In this document: one piece after another, positions 1-64,000 of the stretch
How the letters are laid out: every line of letters starts with the position of its first letter
Numbering within the stretch: the stretch's first letter is position 1
The notes under the pieces: model-generated
Databases searched by the model: none
Seen by the model: the letters and a program-made list of their open reading frames with translations, nothing else
What the model was told of the DNA's origin: nothing
Position numbers and translations under genes: made by a program
Sequence record: MK373794.1
Length of the DNA stretch: 64,000 nt
From: Escherichia phage vB_EcoS_HdK1
Strand: one strand, 5' to 3'

Positions 1-105
1 TTTATATAAATACACACATATACACATTTTTACCTTATTTTTCATGCACTTACCTCCTTTCATTTCGTATATTAAGCGACAATATACGAGCAATATAAGA
101 AATAT

Positions 106-119
106 TTGTTGCGCAACAA
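106..119. repeat. Perfect 14-bp palindrome TTGTTGCGCAACAA in the non-coding control region (second copy at 60798..60811)
   Basis: Read directly from the sequence; lies in the ~1.07-kb non-coding region spanning 60336..60692 and 1..678. Confidence 0.6.
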
Positions 120-617
120 CGAGGCGCTCACAAGCTCGCGCACGCGCATAATGCGGGCACGCGGTCTAACACAAAAGAAAATTGAATTGCAAGCGATTTT
201 TGCTGAGGTAACTCTCGAAGCGAAAGCGATTTGCGAGTTTGAAATTTTGTAGCCCGAAAACGATTCTATTTTATGGTATAAATGTCGGATTTTTCGGTGA
301 AAGGTGGCTTTTCGGTGAGGTTGGGTGGCTGGGATCGGTGTAACTGGTAGCCCATAAAGCGAAAATAGCCGCGAAAACGGGGCACGCAGCGCGATTAAAT
401 GGTTGGATCAGTGTAAGGGTGGCGGTGAGGGGGCGAAAATGCCGCAAAATCGCTTACAGGGATGCAGGGAGTGGGCCGCTGTAAGGGCGTATAAGGCGAT
501 TAAATTGGAGTCTATGGTAATGTATGGAAGATGGATTTAGGCTCTTAGAGCGCGAATGGTGGAGCTATGGGTGAGGAATATGTGGTCAGCAGGGTAGCGC
601 GGGAGGTTATGCAGGTA

Positions 618-660
618 CAAAAACGAAAGCGCCCCGTTGGACTTCAACAGGGCGCGGATT
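618..660 (-). terminator. Rho-independent terminator ending the leftward early operon
   Basis: GC-rich inverted repeat GCGCCC..GGGCGC directly downstream of the stop of the 679..927 gene; on the minus strand it is followed by a T-rich tract. Confidence 0.55.
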
Positions 661-678
661 GTATAATGCTTTTAGAAG

Positions 679-927
679 TTATTTACTAGTTAATAATACC
701 GCCCAGGTATTATCTGGAAGCGTACCAACTCCGAGTATCTTAAACTGAAGCGACTTGTTCTGCATGTTGTAGTTGTCGAGTAACTCCTGGGCAGCCGCAG
801 CAGCGTTCGCTTCACCGTTCAGGTTGTAGTCGTTTGCAGTTATTGCACACATACCGAGACCGACCGCTTTGAAGCGCATACCTTTGGATTGAGTCGGTGC
901 AAGTGCTTTAACATGGATAGCGTTCAT
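679..927 (-). CDS. Hypothetical early protein, 82 aa (paralog family A)
   Basis: ORF track; shares an AAAA(Q/E)EL..F(K/E)ILG/SGG..P(D)..(W/Y)A pattern with the 1458..1703 product. Confidence 0.5.
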   Translation of the reverse strand: MNAIHVKALAPTQSKGMRFKAVGLGMCAITANDYNLNGEANAAAAAQELLDNYNMQNKSLQFKILGVGTLPDNTWAVLLTSK

Positions 928-956
928 ATTATTTATCTCCGTTACAATTTGAAAGG

Positions 957-1220
957 TTAGCAGTTTTTTAACAGGTTGATGAAGCCCACCAGCGTGGACG
1001 CTGTTGCAACCAGGCGGCCCATAGTATGCAGTTCCGCGTAAACTTTACCGTCGTCAAACACAGTTAAATAAACGTTAAGACCATTGCAACGGACGCGATA
1101 TTTGCGCGAGTTATTACCAAAAGTTTCCAGCTCTGCGGTGATAGTCGCAAGATTAGCTATACGTTTGCCGATAATGCGGCGAGTGATAGTGGACTGGTTT
1201 AATACTGTAGACATAATCAT
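957..1220 (-). CDS. Hypothetical early protein, 87 aa (paralog family B)
   Basis: ORF track; N-terminal motif STITRRIIGKRI matches SQITKRIIGKRL of the 2529..2835 product; AGAGG ribosome-binding site upstream. Confidence 0.5.
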   Translation of the reverse strand: MIMSTVLNQSTITRRIIGKRIANLATITAELETFGNNSRKYRVRCNGLNVYLTVFDDGKVYAELHTMGRLVATASTLVGFINLLKNC

Positions 1221-1245
1221 TTCCTCTGTTAACTATGCGAAGTGC

Positions 1246-1274
1246 ATATTATTGCCCACTGTTACTATGGGCAA
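1246..1274 (-). promoter_or_regulatory. Sigma70-like promoter (minus strand: -35 TTGCCC, 17-bp spacer, -10 TAATAT) overlapped by an inverted repeat (candidate operator)
   Basis: Hexamers and spacing read from the reverse complement; inverted repeat TTGCCCA-N9-TGGGCAA at 1252..1274 covers the -35 box and spacer; lies 26 bp upstream of the 957..1220 start. Confidence 0.45.
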
Positions 1275-1282
1275 TGTATATG

Positions 1283-1447
1283 TCACTCAGCGGACACATA
1301 TTCTAACGCTTCTGATAGTGTAGCGAAGTAACCATCGCTCACCAGATTAATAGCGTACTCAAGTTGATCGCGGGTCAGGTTGCGAAACTTGTTACGGATG
1401 TGATAGCAACGACCGCGATAAATAACCTGGAAATAGTTGCGTTCCAT
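1283..1447 (-). CDS. Hypothetical small protein, 54 aa
   Basis: Internal ATG of the 1283..1603 track ORF preceded by AAGGGG; the longer track ORF would overlap the neighbouring gene. Confidence 0.4.
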   Translation of the reverse strand: MERNYFQVIYRGRCYHIRNKFRNLTRDQLEYAINLVSDGYFATLSEALEYVSAE

Positions 1448-1457
1448 AATTATCCCC

Positions 1458-1703
1458 TTATGCAACGATGAACGCGTAACCGCTTTGATCCGGGAGTTCA
1501 CCACCGGAAAGAATTTCAAACTCAACGCCCGCTTTATCGCTGAACTTTTTGATAAGCTCTTCCGCTGCGGCGCGGTGGTTGCCGTAAACACCAAGATCGT
1601 CACGCCACGTGATAGTCAAGGAGCCGTTCCAACCTGTTGCTTTTACGCGCGGGTTACGGGTGGCAGTCGGGTTCATGAATTTTGTGATGATAGCTTGAGC
1701 CAT
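1458..1703 (-). CDS. Hypothetical early protein, 81 aa (paralog family A)
   Basis: ORF track; paralogous to the 679..927 product. Confidence 0.5.
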   Translation of the reverse strand: MAQAIITKFMNPTATRNPRVKATGWNGSLTITWRDDLGVYGNHRAAAEELIKKFSDKAGVEFEILSGGELPDQSGYAFIVA

Positions 1704-1708
1704 GATAA

Positions 1709-1894
1709 TTACTCCGGTAAAATTACAGTGACGTTAATATTTGCAAGGCGAGCGCACTCGCGGAAACCTTTTACATAAGCATCCATTTCGTCATAGGATG
1801 CGAAAGTTGCGTCCGGGACTGGTCCGTTGTTAATATTCACGCAATATTCGTGTTCGTCCAGGTCAACCCAACAAGTCAGAACGATAGTTTCCAT
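1709..1894 (-). CDS. Hypothetical small protein, about 61 aa
   Basis: Internal ATG (METIVL..) preceded by GGAGGG; acidic, Cys-containing. Confidence 0.4.
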   Translation of the reverse strand: METIVLTCWVDLDEHEYCVNINNGPVPDATFASYDEMDAYVKGFRECARLANINVTVILPE

Positions 1895-1972
1895 ATTATT
1901 TGCCCTCCGTATAATACAGACCCGCAACTATTGGAGCTCCGAAAACTAAGAAAGCTAATAAATAGAACATAA

Positions 1973-2452
1973 TTAGTTACCCCCTTTATTGTTGAGCCCG
2001 TTGAATTTACGCCATGCGTAGAATTCAATCGTTGCATTATTAATATTCCAACCATTAGCTTTCGCAAGGTCACGGACGTTACCAATAGTTGGCACACCAT
2101 CAGGCAACATATTATCCAGGGCATTCCAAACGTCTGCGCATTTACCTTTAATCGGGCGACGAACCCCGTTGCGCGTTTCGCTGCGCGTTTTGCTCTTGGC
2201 TGGAGCGACCGGAGCTTGTTGTGTGGTCACTTCCACGACAGTCGCTTTATCAGCTTCCACCAGATCGCTAGCTGCCTTATTAACCGCGCTTTCGCTGTAC
2301 CAGTAGCGACCACCGTCTTCGTGCGGTTCCTGGTGAATAAAGCTATTTGCTGTCGCAGTGTCCACATCCAGAACCTTTTTTAAGGCACGGCGAGCGTTAG
2401 ACATAGTGGCGAAGAAGCGAGCGTCTTTTGCTACGCGAGTGATAGTAACCAT
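1973..2452 (-). CDS. Hypothetical early protein, about 159 aa
   Basis: ORF track; start placed at the ATG preceded by GGAGAT; no recognisable catalytic motif. Confidence 0.45.
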   Translation of the reverse strand: MVTITRVAKDARFFATMSNARRALKKVLDVDTATANSFIHQEPHEDGGRYWYSESAVNKAASDLVEADKATVVEVTTQQAPVAPAKSKTRSETRNGVRRPIKGKCADVWNALDNMLPDGVPTIGNVRDLAKANGWNINNATIEFYAWRKFNGLNNKGGN

Positions 2453-2492
2453 TGTGAATATCTCCATGTTGTTCTAGCGGATTGCTAGTGGG

Positions 2493-2513
2493 AGCCCACT
2501 GTTACAATGGGCA
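2493..2513. repeat. Second copy of the conserved inverted-repeat element GCCCACTGTTAC(A/T)ATGGGCAA
   Basis: Near-identical to 1252..1274; both sit in intergenic gaps between leftward early genes. Confidence 0.55.
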
Positions 2514-2528
2514 ACCATTAGCACGCTA

Positions 2529-2835
2529 TTATTGTTGAATAGCTTTATCTATCATTGCGATGAAGCAGAACACAGACCAAAGGCTATTCGCTTGGCATAC
2601 TGCGCGACCATACATTACGCTATAAGAGCTGACAGTACCGTCCTCGTTAATGCGAATATATAACGCGGTGCTGGAATACTTTTCGTTGCCCGGGAGCATT
2701 ACTAAATACTCGTCGAAACCCCAATCCCCGTCGACTTTTTCCGCAGTAAGGCCCAGTTGGTGCAGTCGCTTGCCAATAATGCGCTTAGTAATCTGAGATT
2801 GGGACATGGAACGCGGTAAGTAGATAATGGACATA
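2529..2835 (-). CDS. Hypothetical early protein, about 102 aa (paralog family B)
   Basis: ORF track; start placed at the ATG preceded by AAGGGAG; paralogous to the 957..1220 product. Confidence 0.5.
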
Positions 2836-2909
2836 ATGCAATCTCCCTTCGGGTGAGGCGGGCGCGGAACCCGTGTCCCGCTTAACAACCCCCTTAACCC
2901 TACACAGTT

Positions 2910-2938
2910 ATAGTATGACAACGGGGTATCAGATGCAA
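2910..2938 (-). promoter_or_regulatory. Sigma70-like early promoter for the leftward operon (minus strand: -35 TTGCAT, 17 bp, -10 TACTAT)
   Basis: Hexamers and spacing read from the reverse complement, about 75 bp upstream of the first leftward gene. Confidence 0.4.
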
Positions 2939-3014
2939 CTATTATCTGCAATATTTTAGAACTTTTTTAGTTGTGTTTCATAATAATAACATCCGGGACT
3001 ATGCGGTAGATGGT

Positions 3015-3088
3015 GTGCCGGAAATACCAGGTAGCGCGAGCGTGCCGAAAATACCAGGTAACAGCACGCGCCGAACATACCAGGTAGC
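3015..3088. repeat. Three tandem ~27-bp iteron-like repeats (core ATACCAGGTA) followed by an AT-rich tract; candidate origin or protein-binding array (second copy 63707..63780)
   Basis: GTGCCGGAAATACCAGGTAGC / GTGCCGAAAATACCAGGTAAC / CGCCGAACATACCAGGTAGC read directly; AT-rich stretch at about 3130..3230. Confidence 0.55.
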
Positions 3089-3476
3089 ACATACATAGAC
3101 AGCACATAGTGGGCAGGTGGATAGTAACAGATGCAATTATACTGGACGGTACAGTATAGTCATGTAATAGATAGCATACTAATTAAATAAAAAATAATAA
3201 CGCGTGTAACAATAAACAACGTTACAGTAGAGCGCGCAACAGTCACATGACGTAACAATCACCTCACTGACGATCACGGGACGTTATAGTAACGCCGCGG
3301 GGCGGCTCTTAGATCTCTGCCAAGGATTCTAGACGTAAACATTGAATCGCCACTAGACTATTTACATCACAACCTCACTCCTCACACAATAATACATAGA
3401 ATTTAAATCCGTATATAAATACTCGAGATAGTATCTACATATTCGAGGATGAGTGCTCAATCATTGTAGGTTATAA

Positions 3477-3956
3477 ATGCGTATCAATTGGTGTGATTAT
3501 TTCTCTTACGAAGATGGTAGACTTTACTGGAAGGCCAGTAGAGGAAGAATACGAGTAGGTTCAGAAGCCGGAAGCGAGGACCAACAAGGTTACATTGTGG
3601 TCAGGTTAAACGGGAAAGATTATAAAGCCCACCGCATCATTTGGGAAATGCACTATGGGCCGATACCAGAAGGAATGGAAGTTGACCACATTTGGCATAA
3701 CCGAAAAGATAACCGGATTGAGAATCTGCGGTTAGTGACGCGTACAGGTAATGGGCGTAATCAGTCTAAATTTGCGACAAATACATCAGGTGTAACTGGT
3801 GTGAATTGGAATAGCCGGGCTGGTAAATGGAGAGCGGAAATTTATGTTGATGGAAAGCATATATCTCTTGGTTTATTCACAATCTTTAATGATGCTGTCT
3901 TAGCGCGTAAATCGGCCGAGGCTAAGTATGGTTTCCATAAAAATCATGGCGAGTGA
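3477..3956 (+). CDS. HNH endonuclease with a C-terminal AP2-like DNA-binding domain (homing-endonuclease type)
   Basis: HNH motif region AHRIIWEMHYGPIPEGMEVDHIWHNRKDNRIENLRLV, then a GVTGV..W.A.I pattern typical of AP2 domains. Confidence 0.8.
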   Translation: MRINWCDYFSYEDGRLYWKASRGRIRVGSEAGSEDQQGYIVVRLNGKDYKAHRIIWEMHYGPIPEGMEVDHIWHNRKDNRIENLRLVTRTGNGRNQSKFATNTSGVTGVNWNSRAGKWRAEIYVDGKHISLGLFTIFNDAVLARKSAEAKYGFHKNHGE

Positions 3957-27825: not shown

Positions 27826-30800
27826 ATGGCAATTCGTTTACAAGGTATTTTAGTTGATGGATTGAATAAACCAATCGTCAACGCAAACGTGTTCTTACTT
27901 GCACGAAGCAATACTATTGTAGTTCTAGGTGGAAGTAAAGCGGTATTTAAGACTGATTCGCAAGGTGCTTACGACGTCACAGTGAACACCGGCCACTATG
28001 TGGTTATCATTGGGCCAGAAGGTAAGGAACCGTATAAAGCGGGTGACATTGTAATCTATGCGGATAGCCAGAACGGTTCACTTAACGCATATCTTACTAA
28101 ATGGGCTCCAGAAGAAACCACACCTGAAATACTTCAGGGAAATAAAGCAACTGGTGTCTAACTCTGAGCAATTTGCATTGCAGGCGTCTGAATCCGCTGC
28201 TAATGCTAAGAAGAGTGAGCTTAACGCAGAGACAAGTAAAAACTCTGCTGCAACGGATGCAGCGTCAGCTCTGCTGTCAAAACAGGAATCTGCTGCTAGT
28301 GCGTCTTCCGCATTGCAATCCAAGAACGCTGCGGCTGGTTCTGCTACATCAGCTCAACAAGCTCTTACTGCTGTGCAAGGACTCAAGGCTGAAGTCCAGC
28401 AATTAAAAACCGACACGCAGCATATTAAAGAAGAGGGTGTCGCTGAAGTAACAGCTCTCAAGAATGCTGCAACTACTTCGGCCAACAATGCTAAAGCATC
28501 AGAAACTGCATCTGCTAATAATGCGACTTTGGCTGATACTAAAGCAAAGGAAGCGTCTGTAAGTGCAACCACCGCTAATCAAGCGAAAGTAGCTGCTGAG
28601 GCAGCAAAGGCCGCATCCGAAGCAAGTGCAGTTGAGTCCGCTACTTCTGCCGGTAAATCGCAGACCGCAGCTAATGCAGCTAAGGCAAGTGAGACGGTTG
28701 CAACACAGAAGGCAGCTTCGGCGTCTACGTCTGAAACTAATGCGGCAGCTTCCGCTCAGACTGCGACTAACAAAGCTGGTGAGTCCGCCGCTAGTGCTAC
28801 CGCAGCTAAGGCAAGCGAAACTAATGCTAAAACTTCAGAAACTAATGCTGGTACATCAGCTGGAAGATCTGAGTCTGCTGCTTTACGCTCAGAAGCTGCT
28901 GCCCAACGTGCGGAAGACATTGCTGATGCAATTGGTCTTGAAGATGCAACTTTAACTGTTAAAGGTATCGTTCGTCTTAGCAATGATACTAACAGCACTG
29001 CTGAAAACCTGGCAGCTACGCCAAAGGCTGTTAAAACAGTCATGGACGTTGCTAATACTAAAGCTCCGTCAAATAGTCCTGTTCTAACTGGCGTACCAAC
29101 GGCACCAACTCCAGCACCTGAAGTTAATAACAATCAGATTGCCACAACTCAGTTTGTACACCAAATTATAAGCGCACTGATTGGTGATGCACCAGACGCG
29201 TTAAACACTCTGAAAGAGTTAGCTGACGCTCTTGGTGATGATCCGAATTTTGCAACGACGATAACCACACTTATTAACAGTAAGTTGGCTAAAGATCAAA
29301 ATGGTGCTGACATTCCTAATAAGCAACTGTTCATTGATAACGTTGGTCTACGTGAGACTGTCAACTTAGCTCTCGGTGCATTGAAGAAGAACCAAAACGG
29401 TGCAGATATACCGGATAAAGGTGTCTTCCTTAATAACATCAATGCTGCCAGCAAGACGGATATGGCCGCCAAGAAAGGTATGAGATATACTGTGGTCAAT
29501 GCCCCAGCGGGAGTTGAAGCAGGTAAGTTTTATCCTGTTGCGATTCGTCGTTCTTCTGGATTCAGCAGTGAATTAGCATCCAGGGTGACAATAAGTACAG
29601 GTTCAAGAACGGGAAACCATAGGTTGAACAACTGCGAGTTCAATGGTTTTGTTATGACTGGTGGTTGGACTGACAGGGGACGTTATGCTTATGGAATGTT
29701 CCACGCATATACTGCAAATGAACGTGCTATTCATTCCATTCTGATGAGTAATAAAGATGATGATCTGTGCTCTGTGTTCTATGTCGAAGGTGAAGCGTTC
29801 CCTATCTCTGTATATGTAGAAGAAGGTTTATCTGTTGTTGCACCATCTGCCGACTATGTTGTCGGACAAACGACTTACAAATGGGGTGCTACAGACCCTG
29901 GAACAGAATGCGTGGCCGCTGAAACTGTACTTAATTTCTCCAATGGTAGAGGATTCTATAGTTCGCACGCACTCCTCACAAATGCGGATATTAGTGGCAA
30001 TAAAATTTACGCCAACGGTGAAATCGTAGCTCGCGGTGAGAATCAAGTTCGCATGATTGGTGGGGACTACGGTGCGTTATGGCGTAACGACGGTGCCAAG
30101 ACCTATCTCTTATTTACCGCTAAAGGCGATCAATACGGTGGTTGGAACGATTTAAGACCATTTATGATTGATAACGCTACTGGTGAGTTTACCATCGGTA
30201 CTAAATTGAACGCCGGTCAAGGTGTGAATGGTAACGCATCCAGTGCTACTAAGTTACAAACAGCGCGTAAAATTGGTGGCGCCTCATTTGATGGTACTGC
30301 TGACGTCAATCTTCCAGGCGTTAACATTCAGGGTAATCAGAACACAACTGGTAATGCGGCAACTGCCACCAAACTACAGACAGCACGTAGGATTGCCAAT
30401 GTGCCTTTTGATGGTAGTGGCGATATATCGATTCCAGCTAGAAACGTGAATGCGTTTGCGTTAGGTTTGACTCAAATAGTACAAGATCCAGAAGATGGAA
30501 ATCTATCTAATGGTGTACCTTGGAATGCTATAACCGGTGTTTACAGACAACAAGGTATAGGAGCCTCTAATATTGTTGCTCATTTTTGTGATGGTGGTGG
30601 TTCAACACCTTCTTTGCAGATAAGAGCTATGTATAGGAATGGTGGTCTTTGGTATCGTACATCACGTGATGGTTATGGTTTTGAAGAAAACTGGGATCAA
30701 ATTTACACTAAAAAGAACCCGCCTCCGGCTGGCGAAACCTTACCTGTAGGTGTTCCATTACCGTGGCCCACGGATACACCTCCGTCCGGTTATATTGTAA

Positions 30801-59446: not shown

Positions 59447-60335
59447 TTCCTCCAGATATCACGCGATTCTTTAATACGGATGTTATACCGTATAAGTTGC
59501 TGCATAACTTTATGCAGGTCATCGAGATGCTTCCTTAAACGAAGACGTTTCTTGATAGCCCACAAGTTCTTCATATCCGTTCGTTGGAGATCCTCCCTTA
59601 AATACAATGAAAAGTCAGTCTGGTGATCTAAGATAAATTGGATACGCATCAAAGTATCCGACTTACGATAATCAGGATACCACTTAGGAAGCACATCTTG
59701 TTCGCCAATCATCTTACGCTCCAAACTGATCAATGTATTCAATGAGCTCTTGCAATTCTTGCTGTAACTGCACATTACCACTATTATTCGTCTGAAGTCT
59801 AACGAGGCGTTCCTTGATATGTGCAATGTGGTTAGTGCCCATCCGACGCTTCTGTACATCACACCAGCGAACAACACCATCTTCAATATATGCACGACGG
59901 GCTTTACCACGCGGGTATCGCAGCGGCGCCGAATTTCACACTTATCGCCCACCCACTTAAAGCCCAGGATCATAACAGCGTTACCTTCCGTATCAGGACA
60001 CACGTCAAAACAACTGTTGAACCCTTTACTGCGCATATACTCGTCGAGCGGAATCACCTTATCAGGCGACAACCATTGATACCCGAAGTAAATATCGACA
60101 GTGAACACCGTACCCAACATCGGAGCCGACCAGCACATATACATCCGCCCGTCATCCAACTTCTTGACCGCATTCGGCCCGCAACACGAGGCCAGCCGCC
60201 TTCCACGCTTTGACCACATTAATCGTGTTGTCCTGCTCCTGAAAGATTGCGTCTGCCTGCATATATGTAGGCGCGTCCCAGCCCGAACATTTCCTTTACA
60301 TGAGCATTAGTGATTTTAACCTTTTGATTGCGCAT
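59443..60335 (-). CDS. First gene of the leftward replication-block operon; hypothetical, with apparent internal frameshifts
   Basis: ATG at 60335 preceded by AGGTGAGG; protein-like reading switches frame at least twice before joining track ORF 59443..60219. Confidence 0.3.
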
Positions 60336-60414
60336 AACCTCACCTTTGATGATAATAAATCGATTAATTTTGAAATTCAGTTGCCGGTTTTATGTTTATT
60401 TTACGCAATGTGTT

Positions 60415-60545
60415 TTGCAATACAATATTGATATATTTTGTTTTTGCATTGCAATGTTTTTGTATTGCAAAAATTACAACAGTCTGAAGGTGAGAAATTG
60501 CAAATTTATAAAGATTGGTGAAAAAATGCACAATTTATAAAGATT
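60415..60545. promoter_or_regulatory. Early control region with four ATTGCAA/TTGCAAT half-site motifs (one perfect palindrome ATTGCAAT at 60448..60455) and a 14-bp direct repeat AATTTATAAAGATT (60503..60516 and 60532..60545)
   Basis: Motifs read directly from the sequence in the AT-rich region upstream of the leftward replication operon. Confidence 0.45.
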
Positions 60546-61309
60546 CAGCAATATACGAAACGGCGAAGCGAAGTGTATGAAAAATAAGGGAAAATTTCGA
60601 GAGTTGGGAGGTTTGTAGTGATTTATATTATTTATAAAGGGGTCTCGTGGGGTCGTCAGTAGACAACTCAAAAATAAAAAATCTTTATAAAATTTATATA
60701 AATACACACATATACACATTTTTACCTTATTTTTCATGCACTTACCTCCTTTCATTTCGTATATTAAGCGACAATATACGAGCAATATAAGAAATATTTG
60801 TTGCGCAACAACGAGGCGCTCACAAGCTCGCGCACGCGCATAATGCGGGCACGCGGTCTAACACAAAAGAAAATTGAATTGCAAGCGATTTTTGCTGAGG
60901 TAACTCTCGAAGCGAAAGCGATTTGCGAGTTTGAAATTTTGTAGCCCGAAAACGATTCTATTTTATGGTATAAATGTCGGATTTTTCGGTGAAAGGTGGC
61001 TTTTCGGTGAGGTTGGGTGGCTGGGATCGGTGTAACTGGTAGCCCATAAAGCGAAAATAGCCGCGAAAACGGGGCACGCAGCGCGATTAAATGGTTGGAT
61101 CAGTGTAAGGGTGGCGGTGAGGGGGCGAAAATGCCGCAAAATCGCTTACAGGGATGCAGGGAGTGGGCCGCTGTAAGGGCGTATAAGGCGATTAAATTGG
61201 AGTCTATGGTAATGTATGGAAGATGGATTTAGGCTCTTAGAGCGCGAATGGTGGAGCTATGGGTGAGGAATATGTGGTCAGCAGGGTAGCGCGGGAGGTT
61301 ATGCAGGTA

Positions 61310-61352
61310 CAAAAACGAAAGCGCCCCGTTGGACTTCAACAGGGCGCGGATT
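61310..61352 (-). terminator. Second copy of the early-operon terminator (same as 618..660)
   Basis: Within the terminal duplication. Confidence 0.55.
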
Positions 61353-61370
61353 GTATAATGCTTTTAGAAG

Positions 61371-61619
61371 TTATTTACTAGTTAATAATACCGCCCAGGT
61401 ATTATCTGGAAGCGTACCAACTCCGAGTATCTTAAACTGAAGCGACTTGTTCTGCATGTTGTAGTTGTCGAGTAACTCCTGGGCAGCCGCAGCAGCGTTC
61501 GCTTCACCGTTCAGGTTGTAGTCGTTTGCAGTTATTGCACACATACCGAGACCGACCGCTTTGAAGCGCATACCTTTGGATTGAGTCGGTGCAAGTGCTT
61601 TAACATGGATAGCGTTCAT
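61371..61619 (-). CDS. Duplicate of the 679..927 gene (paralog family A)
   Basis: Identical translation in the ORF track. Confidence 0.5.
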   Translation of the reverse strand: MNAIHVKALAPTQSKGMRFKAVGLGMCAITANDYNLNGEANAAAAAQELLDNYNMQNKSLQFKILGVGTLPDNTWAVLLTSK

Positions 61620-61648
61620 ATTATTTATCTCCGTTACAATTTGAAAGG

Positions 61649-61912
61649 TTAGCAGTTTTTTAACAGGTTGATGAAGCCCACCAGCGTGGACGCTGTTGCA
61701 ACCAGGCGGCCCATAGTATGCAGTTCCGCGTAAACTTTACCGTCGTCAAACACAGTTAAATAAACGTTAAGACCATTGCAACGGACGCGATATTTGCGCG
61801 AGTTATTACCAAAAGTTTCCAGCTCTGCGGTGATAGTCGCAAGATTAGCTATACGTTTGCCGATAATGCGGCGAGTGATAGTGGACTGGTTTAATACTGT
61901 AGACATAATCAT
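61649..61912 (-). CDS. Duplicate of the 957..1220 gene (paralog family B)
   Basis: Identical translation in the ORF track. Confidence 0.5.
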   Translation of the reverse strand: MIMSTVLNQSTITRRIIGKRIANLATITAELETFGNNSRKYRVRCNGLNVYLTVFDDGKVYAELHTMGRLVATASTLVGFINLLKNC

Positions 61913-61974
61913 TTCCTCTGTTAACTATGCGAAGTGCATATTATTGCCCACTGTTACTATGGGCAATGTATATG

Positions 61975-62139
61975 TCACTCAGCGGACACATATTCTAACG
62001 CTTCTGATAGTGTAGCGAAGTAACCATCGCTCACCAGATTAATAGCGTACTCAAGTTGATCGCGGGTCAGGTTGCGAAACTTGTTACGGATGTGATAGCA
62101 ACGACCGCGATAAATAACCTGGAAATAGTTGCGTTCCAT
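61975..62139 (-). CDS. Duplicate of the 1283..1447 gene
   Basis: Within the terminal duplication. Confidence 0.4.
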   Translation of the reverse strand: MERNYFQVIYRGRCYHIRNKFRNLTRDQLEYAINLVSDGYFATLSEALEYVSAE

Positions 62140-62149
62140 AATTATCCCC

Positions 62150-62395
62150 TTATGCAACGATGAACGCGTAACCGCTTTGATCCGGGAGTTCACCACCGGA
62201 AAGAATTTCAAACTCAACGCCCGCTTTATCGCTGAACTTTTTGATAAGCTCTTCCGCTGCGGCGCGGTGGTTGCCGTAAACACCAAGATCGTCACGCCAC
62301 GTGATAGTCAAGGAGCCGTTCCAACCTGTTGCTTTTACGCGCGGGTTACGGGTGGCAGTCGGGTTCATGAATTTTGTGATGATAGCTTGAGCCAT
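62150..62395 (-). CDS. Duplicate of the 1458..1703 gene
   Basis: Identical translation in the ORF track. Confidence 0.5.
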   Translation of the reverse strand: MAQAIITKFMNPTATRNPRVKATGWNGSLTITWRDDLGVYGNHRAAAEELIKKFSDKAGVEFEILSGGELPDQSGYAFIVA

Positions 62396-62400
62396 GATAA

Positions 62401-62586
62401 TTACTCCGGTAAAATTACAGTGACGTTAATATTTGCAAGGCGAGCGCACTCGCGGAAACCTTTTACATAAGCATCCATTTCGTCATAGGATGCGAAAGTT
62501 GCGTCCGGGACTGGTCCGTTGTTAATATTCACGCAATATTCGTGTTCGTCCAGGTCAACCCAACAAGTCAGAACGATAGTTTCCAT
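62401..62586 (-). CDS. Duplicate of the 1709..1894 gene
   Basis: Within the terminal duplication. Confidence 0.4.
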   Translation of the reverse strand: METIVLTCWVDLDEHEYCVNINNGPVPDATFASYDEMDAYVKGFRECARLANINVTVILPE

Positions 62587-62664
62587 ATTATTTGCCCTCC
62601 GTATAATACAGACCCGCAACTATTGGAGCTCCGAAAACTAAGAAAGCTAATAAATAGAACATAA

Positions 62665-63144
62665 TTAGTTACCCCCTTTATTGTTGAGCCCGTTGAATTT
62701 ACGCCATGCGTAGAATTCAATCGTTGCATTATTAATATTCCAACCATTAGCTTTCGCAAGGTCACGGACGTTACCAATAGTTGGCACACCATCAGGCAAC
62801 ATATTATCCAGGGCATTCCAAACGTCTGCGCATTTACCTTTAATCGGGCGACGAACCCCGTTGCGCGTTTCGCTGCGCGTTTTGCTCTTGGCTGGAGCGA
62901 CCGGAGCTTGTTGTGTGGTCACTTCCACGACAGTCGCTTTATCAGCTTCCACCAGATCGCTAGCTGCCTTATTAACCGCGCTTTCGCTGTACCAGTAGCG
63001 ACCACCGTCTTCGTGCGGTTCCTGGTGAATAAAGCTATTTGCTGTCGCAGTGTCCACATCCAGAACCTTTTTTAAGGCACGGCGAGCGTTAGACATAGTG
63101 GCGAAGAAGCGAGCGTCTTTTGCTACGCGAGTGATAGTAACCAT
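62665..63144 (-). CDS. Duplicate of the 1973..2452 gene
   Basis: Identical translation in the ORF track. Confidence 0.45.
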   Translation of the reverse strand: MVTITRVAKDARFFATMSNARRALKKVLDVDTATANSFIHQEPHEDGGRYWYSESAVNKAASDLVEADKATVVEVTTQQAPVAPAKSKTRSETRNGVRRPIKGKCADVWNALDNMLPDGVPTIGNVRDLAKANGWNINNATIEFYAWRKFNGLNNKGGN

Positions 63145-63220
63145 TGTGAATATCTCCATGTTGTTCTAGCGGATTGCTAGTGGGAGCCCACTGTTACAAT
63201 GGGCAACCATTAGCACGCTA

Positions 63221-63527
63221 TTATTGTTGAATAGCTTTATCTATCATTGCGATGAAGCAGAACACAGACCAAAGGCTATTCGCTTGGCATACTGCGCGAC
63301 CATACATTACGCTATAAGAGCTGACAGTACCGTCCTCGTTAATGCGAATATATAACGCGGTGCTGGAATACTTTTCGTTGCCCGGGAGCATTACTAAATA
63401 CTCGTCGAAACCCCAATCCCCGTCGACTTTTTCCGCAGTAAGGCCCAGTTGGTGCAGTCGCTTGCCAATAATGCGCTTAGTAATCTGAGATTGGGACATG
63501 GAACGCGGTAAGTAGATAATGGACATA
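63221..63527 (-). CDS. Duplicate of the 2529..2835 gene
   Basis: Identical translation in the ORF track. Confidence 0.5.
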
Positions 63528-63706
63528 ATGCAATCTCCCTTCGGGTGAGGCGGGCGCGGAACCCGTGTCCCGCTTAACAACCCCCTTAACCCTACACAGT
63601 TATAGTATGACAACGGGGTATCAGATGCAACTATTATCTGCAATATTTTAGAACTTTTTTAGTTGTGTTTCATAATAATAACATCCGGGACTATGCGGTA
63701 GATGGT

Positions 63707-63780
63707 GTGCCGGAAATACCAGGTAGCGCGAGCGTGCCGAAAATACCAGGTAACAGCACGCGCCGAACATACCAGGTAGC
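63707..63780. repeat. Second copy of the three tandem iteron-like repeats (same as 3015..3088)
   Basis: Within the terminal duplication. Confidence 0.55.
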
Positions 63781-64000
63781 ACATACATAGACAGCACATA
63801 GTGGGCAGGTGGATAGTAACAGATGCAATTATACTGGACGGTACAGTATAGTCATGTAATAGATAGCATACTAATTAAATAAAAAATAATAACGCGTGTA
63901 ACAATAAACAACGTTACAGTAGAGCGCGCAACAGTCACATGACGTAACAATCACCTCACTGACGATCACGGGACGTTATAGTAACGCCGCGGGGCGGCTC

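Follow-up and report, generated by a model that had tools for sequence, protein, structure and literature searches.

What is the 3.3-kb sequence that stands at both ends of a 64,000-nt stretch of Escherichia phage vB_EcoS_HdK1 DNA (MK373794.1; the whole stretch is called the window here)? The original prediction, made from the letters of the window, offered two readings: a circular or concatemeric assembly wrapped around on itself, or a long direct terminal repeat (DTR) carrying the early genes on a genome unit of about 60.7 kb. Comparison with related phages supports the second but not the first, since two other Nonagvirus phages have a known terminus at exactly the base where the repeat stops. 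The duplication is very probably a real long DTR of about 3,367 to 3,370 bp on a 60,692-bp unit, and the record a Nonagvirus genome deposited in virion form.

Compared base by base, window positions 1-3308 and 60693-64000 are the same at 3308/3308 bases, with 0 mismatches and a constant offset of 60,692, which is also the length of the repeat unit in base pairs. The exact duplication claimed for both ends is thereby borne out, and a 3.3-kb match of this kind cannot have arisen by chance. A self-BLAST of the window returned no further repeat at E ≤ 1e-5. At 90-96% identity, the window ends match 17 Nonagvirus records, which represent 13 distinct genomes, and no match reaches 99%; the genus holds 9g-like siphoviruses of Escherichia coli and Salmonella in the subfamily Queuovirinae, whose DNA contains deoxyarchaeosine. 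The closest relative is vB_EcoS_HdSG1 (MK373795), which is 95-98% identical and with which the window is collinear over its whole length, in the same gene order. The HdSG1 record is linear and 63,595 bp long and carries the same 3,363 nt at its two ends (3363/3363 identical), giving a unit of 60,232 bp. Window positions 60631-64000 align end to end with HdSG1 1-3363, that is, with the entire HdSG1 DTR. The repeat can be laid out in the window as follows:

1-3308, unstranded: visible part of the left DTR copy, equal to 60693-64000 and 94.9% identical to HdSG1 64-3363, inside the 3,363-bp DTR of HdSG1.
60631-60692, unstranded: predicted first part of the DTR, 62 nt, homologous to nt 1-63 of the HdSG1 repeat.
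60693-64000, unstranded: right DTR copy, base 64000 being the putative right physical end of the virion DNA.

The left repeat copy is cut off by the window start and is short by about 59-62 nt at its left end (window base 1 corresponds to HdSG1 position 64), which is why positions 60631-60692 have no second copy in the window. The original prediction had called the repeat length a minimum on the grounds that the window stops inside the repeat; the minimum holds, but the clipping is at the window start, and the right end at 64000 is complete. By HdSG1 homology the full repeat is 3,370 bp, and by a record length of 64,059 bp it is 3,367 bp (64,059 - 60,692); the true length would lie at about these values. 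That record length comes from Korf et al. 2019 (Viruses 11:454, PMC6563267), who isolated HdSG1 and a second Nonagvirus, HdK1, and whose Table S4 gives HdK1 as 64,059 bp with a GC content of 44.07% under MK373794 and has terminal repeats entered for both Nonagvirus isolates. The window has a GC content of 44.08%, which becomes 44.07% when 59 nt are added, whether before or after it. If the record is 64,059 bp long, the window would cover all of it but the first 59 bases. The opposite placement, with the window as the first 64,000 bases, was considered and graded unlikely: it would shift both repeat ends by ~60 nt relative to HdSG1 and needs an unexplained coincidence, a shift that puts base 64000 exactly on the HdSG1 terminus. 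A DTR of the kind proposed here predicts that MK373794 ends ...CGCCGCGGGGCGGCTC / ...GGGGCGGCTC and starts ATAAAGGGGTCTCG or TTTATAAAGGGG. Korf et al. linearised their contigs where most reads stopped abruptly and reported distinct start and end points; the repeats are given in the supplementary table alone, and their content and boundary sequences are not discussed. For HdSG1, that table lists a repeat of 3,362, and 3,363 is measured in the record.

At the right boundary, this phage, HdSG1, and 9g, studied in two laboratories, have a DNA end at the same base. The HdSG1 record closes with the same 16 bases as the window (...CGCCGCGGGGCGGCTC). A gap-free alignment of window 3200-3329 to 28,135-28,264 of 9g places window 3308 (equal to 64000) opposite 9g position 28,243, at which Kulikov et al. 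2014 (Viruses 6:5077, PMC4276943) found one clear read-end hotspot in 9g virion DNA. About 85 reads cross that position, and from these crossing reads the authors inferred a direct terminal repeat in 9g, giving no size for it. The right terminus is thus fixed and non-permuted at a defined sequence, with the window end, the HdSG1 end, and the 9g hotspot coinciding to the base. To compare the boundaries, window 59901-64000 followed by 3309-3460 was aligned as a single-copy junction across 13 Nonagvirus genomes. One feature of the alignment lies across the right boundary:

3279-3329, plus strand: invariant 51-nt block, GGACGTTATAGTAACGCCGCGGGGCGGCTC followed by TTAGATCTCTGCCAAGGATTC, spanning the right DTR boundary, with the putative cut between 3308 and 3309.

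This block is the longest invariant run in the 4.25-kb alignment, with far more variable flanks, and a position specified beforehand would land in it by chance about 1% of the time. The boundary divides it into 30 nt within the repeat and 21 nt outside. Within it are an AGATCT palindrome and a hairpin, GCCGC-GGG-GCGGC. The window has the site in full only at 3279-3329; at 63971-64000 its left 30 nt alone are found, which is what a cut end should show. The block is a candidate terminase cleavage or recognition site.

The left boundary is of a different build:

60503-60743, unstranded: left-boundary architecture, four TTTATAAAG 9-mers set inside a 24-nt inverted repeat (60571-60594 and 60720-60743), conserved in 13 genomes.

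The 9-mers begin at 60505, 60534, and 60631 on the plus strand, and the inverted fourth copy occupies 60683-60691 on the minus strand; these are all four copies in the 64 kb, gathered within 187 nt (60505-60691), where about one would be expected in the whole window. The surrounding palindromic cluster includes the inverted repeats I1, I7, I15, and I23. The HdSG1 record begins at the homologue of 60631, so that a left end of the HdSG1 type falls on the first base of the third TTTATAAAG copy. The HdSG1 record opens with the sequence seen at 60631, TTTATAAAGGGGTC, which 13/13 genomes contain. Since 9g has one hotspot only, the left end is drawn solely from the HdSG1 and HdK1 deposits. At each boundary the same 14 nt recur in 13/13 genomes, the length enclosed between them varies from 2,963 to 3,972 bp, and the boundary sequences match Nonagvirus records only. 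Two further elements were seen nearby. A weak promoter-like rightward site at 60604-60631 stops exactly at the putative left terminus, and about 160-220 nt to the left of the repeat, at 60413-60473, two tandem 16-mers (TGTTTTTGCATTGCAA) accompany a perfect 13-nt inverted repeat, which could be an operator or an origin.

Taken with the boundaries, the arrangement agrees with the DTR class of termini (T5, SPO1, T7-like; 'DTR' in PhageTerm): the same sequence stands in direct orientation at both linear ends, and in 11 relatives, deposited as single-copy units of 56.7-60.8 kb, each unit has a single repeat copy and the sequence runs on unbroken across both boundaries. HdSG1 has a unit 460 bp shorter than that of this phage, yet the repeats are alike, which fits ends set by site rather than by headful. 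Several points weigh against this reading. The second repeat copy in the deposited record is the depositor's reconstruction. In 9g there is a single hotspot, and coverage is 1.5x over a whole half of the genome, not 2x over about 3 kb (PMC4276943). Finally, Table S4 of Korf et al. enters the HdK1 repeat as '3,48', where 3,367 would be expected, a disagreement of ~113 nt. The large terminase subunit (TerL) has a weak match to Terminase_6N and no relative in a search against the PDB, so the packaging type cannot be derived from it.

The alternative that survives best, though it is improbable, is headful packaging from a precise pac cut between 3308 and 3309 with ~5.5% terminal redundancy, by which the right end alone would be exact, the deposited left end and repeat length would approximate the initial headful, and those that follow would be permuted. 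It would accommodate 9g, with its one-sided hotspot at 28,243, the reads that cross it, and the lack of a second hotspot, and the odd 9g coverage fits it too; the extra coverage over the whole early half of that genome is not explained by a 3-kb repeat. Conservation is also lower immediately to the left of the left boundary than at the right boundary. A constant packaged length would, however, make redundancy vary inversely with the unit, whereas units of 60,232 and 60,692 bp go with repeats of 3,363 and 3,370 bp (at least 3,308 bp observed in the latter), and a constant 63,595 bp would leave this phage with a redundancy of about 2,903 bp, short of the observed 3,308 bp. The left limits of HdSG1 and this phage are homologous within about 3 nt, taking the record as 64,059 bp, despite the 460-bp difference in unit, and within a conserved palindromic cluster the left limit coincides with the opening base of a motif. 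Korf et al. report start and end points that are distinct, which likewise does not suit headful packaging. Less probable again, and very unlikely in itself, is an artefact with no physical repeat behind it, either a 60,692-bp circular or collapsed record wrapped to 64,000 or the overlapping contig ends of an assembler: the 11 single-copy relatives, the circular assemblies of the BASEL phages, the capacity of PacBio HGAP (used by Korf et al.) to leave self-overlapping contig ends, and the zero mismatches that copying and pasting would likewise give are all compatible with it, but it predicts an arbitrary repeat end, and the right limit is instead the HdSG1 terminus and the 9g hotspot, a coincidence of about 1 in 60,000, with the 51-nt site whole only at the internal junction and severed precisely at the right end. 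Because the repeat end coincides exactly with a known terminus, wrap-around is rejected.

For a site-defined DTR, the T7/T5 paradigm suggests the following course. The virion DNA would be linear and non-permuted, of the form repeat-unique-repeat, and about 64.06 kb long. After entry, replication and recombination through the repeats would produce circles or concatemers in which each unit holds a single repeat copy; this would be why the relatives assemble as 57-61-kb circles. Terminase would cut site-specifically at the two boundary sites, including the conserved site; it may pass the first boundary sites and make its final cut at the second left site only as the head comes close to full. DNA synthesis across the repeat, as in the T7 model, could supply its second copy, or neighbouring units could be sacrificed for it. 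With the repeat, a linear genome could be replicated completely and could recombine end to end, and each end of the injected DNA would carry the seven-gene early operon and its promoter, ready for immediate transcription.

The genes and signals in the repeat are these:

679-2834, and again 61371-63526, minus strand: seven-gene leftward operon; its open reading frames (ORFs) match HdSG1_00001-00007 and 00088-00094.
679-927, 957-1214, 1283-1447, 1458-1703, 1709-1894, 1973-2452, and 2529-2834, minus strand: ORFs of the seven operon genes.
629-655, second copy 61321-61347, minus strand: intrinsic terminator 24 nt downstream of the last operon gene, with an 11-bp stem, 8 GC pairs, and a T tract.
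2955-3163, unstranded: regulatory region, with predicted promoters facing right at 2955-2984 and left at 3163-3136, and three 23-nt iterons.
3014-3036, 3041-3063, and 3067-3089 (equal to 63706-63781), unstranded: the three 23-nt iterons, CGTGCCGAAAATACCAGGTAACA-like, repeat family D2, spaced by 26-27 nt.

The statement in the original prediction that the whole early leftward operon is duplicated is correct for these seven genes (679-2834) together with their terminator, iterons, and predicted promoter. The promoters at 2955-3163 were predicted by a consensus scan, and BPROM promoters are annotated at the homologous 9g positions; HdSG1 carries an annotated terminator at the same place as 629-655. 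As both predicted promoters lie inside the repeat, the early operon would be autonomous at each end of the injected DNA, and the same point about a promoter region within the repeat was made for 9g (Kulikov et al. 2014; PMC4276943). The iterons sit between the predicted face-to-face promoters, in the least conserved and most indel-rich part of the repeat in the 13 genomes, and are probably an operator array for a phage-specific regulator.

All seven DTR proteins match PHROGs of unknown function, and Pfam and PDB searches with them found no relatives (nothing meaningful in the PDB). They include two paralogue pairs on the minus strand, 679-927 with 1458-1703 and 957-1214 with 2529-2834 (phrog_3199 twice and phrog_13865 twice), and terminal duplication brings each paralogue family to four copies per virion DNA. 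The C-terminal domain of the 159-aa protein recurs, by tblastn, in the early regions of Seuratvirus, iggy-like, and NP1-like phages; it is widespread in related siphoviruses and unannotated save for one 'transcriptional activator' label. The first 628 nt (1-628, equal to 60693-61320) form a stretch of about 630 nt without a conserved ORF that nevertheless holds well-conserved blocks, among them a 38-nt run at 245-282 that is invariant in 13 genomes. An Rfam search of 59800-64000 gave sub-threshold chance hits only, one of them a hairpin hit at 60413-60473, and nothing in 1-628. Beyond the right boundary, and 169 nt outside it, an HNH_3 homing-endonuclease ORF (Pfam, 1e-22) occupies 3477-3956 on the plus strand. 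It is absent at this place in 12/12 relatives, and the window diverges from all relatives from 22 nt past the boundary. JenP1 has a different homing endonuclease within its predicted repeat (L016, 5634-6107).

A further reading of the repeat is possible but doubtful: it may be a T5-like 'pre-early' module in which the ORF-free stretch of ~630 nt with the TTTATAAAG palindrome pauses injection, terminates packaging, or both, and the 51-nt block is the terminase initiation site. If so, the first-entering end would bring promoter, operon, and terminator for host takeover or anti-defence, and the DNA would have one exact end and one end with a different recognition system, an arrangement undescribed for Nonagvirus.

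The repeat itself is already known: it is on record in the HdSG1 and HdK1 GenBank entries and in Table S4 of Korf et al. and was inferred in the 9g paper. Literature searches on Nonagvirus terminal repeats found nothing beyond these two papers, in which boundaries and content are not discussed. What is added here is the agreement of the right terminus to the base in three phages, candidate cis sites at both boundaries, and repeat sizes for the 11 single-unit records (L006-L016 in our set). For these, the shared boundary sequences predict virion DNAs of 59.8-64.7 kb, with repeats that measure 2,963-3,972 bp. Most Nonagvirus records (9g, JenK1, JenP1, JenP2, the BASEL phages, and others) would accordingly be read as arbitrarily opened single units whose true ends can be predicted from the boundary sequences, with virion DNA about 5% longer than such records imply and two copies of the seven early genes per particle. 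This bears on genome engineering and on packaging-limit estimates in these restriction-resistant phages with deoxyarchaeosine DNA, and it is a useful annotation point rather than a discovery.

Among known systems, the nearest are within the genus. The DTR ends of HdSG1 are homologous to window 60631 and 64000, and the window falls short of the HdK1 left copy by about 59-62 nt. In 9g (KJ419279), the type of Nonagvirus, the mapped end at 28,243 is the exact homologue of window 3308/64000; the record has one copy of the repeat, and homology predicts 3,084 bp for a repeat whose size and second boundary were not determined in the 9g paper. That genome was re-linearised at the mapped end according to the paper (PMC4276943), whereas GenBank KJ419279 keeps the terminus at internal position 28,243. 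The Queuovirinae-like Pseudomonas phage iggy has a DTR of 1,091 bp, with termini mapped by nanopore reads (NAR 2023, PMC10484667). It resembles this phage in having 7-deazaguanine DNA and a TerL that groups with Nonagvirus, but its repeat is three times shorter, and its boundaries have no nucleotide similarity to those described here.

The terminal repeats of T7 and T3 are 160-230 bp long, and these phages have fixed, sequence-defined ends, with one repeat copy per concatemer junction that is duplicated at packaging. T7 is the mechanistic model adopted for this phage, although its repeat is about 20-fold shorter and non-coding and its terminase is unrelated by sequence to the TerL of this phage. 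In phage T5, the pre-early 'first-step-transfer' genes are carried on long terminal repeats of about 10 kb, against which the repeat of this phage is three times shorter. Korf et al. 2019 (PMC6563267) give T5-like repeats as 10-11 kb. No homologues of the T5 pre-early genes A1, A2, and dmp were found among the seven DTR proteins, which match only PHROGs of unknown function. The likeness to T5 lies in a multi-kilobase exact DTR on a siphovirus genome carrying a complete early transcription unit, and because that unit is in both repeat copies, its genes are present at whichever end enters first.

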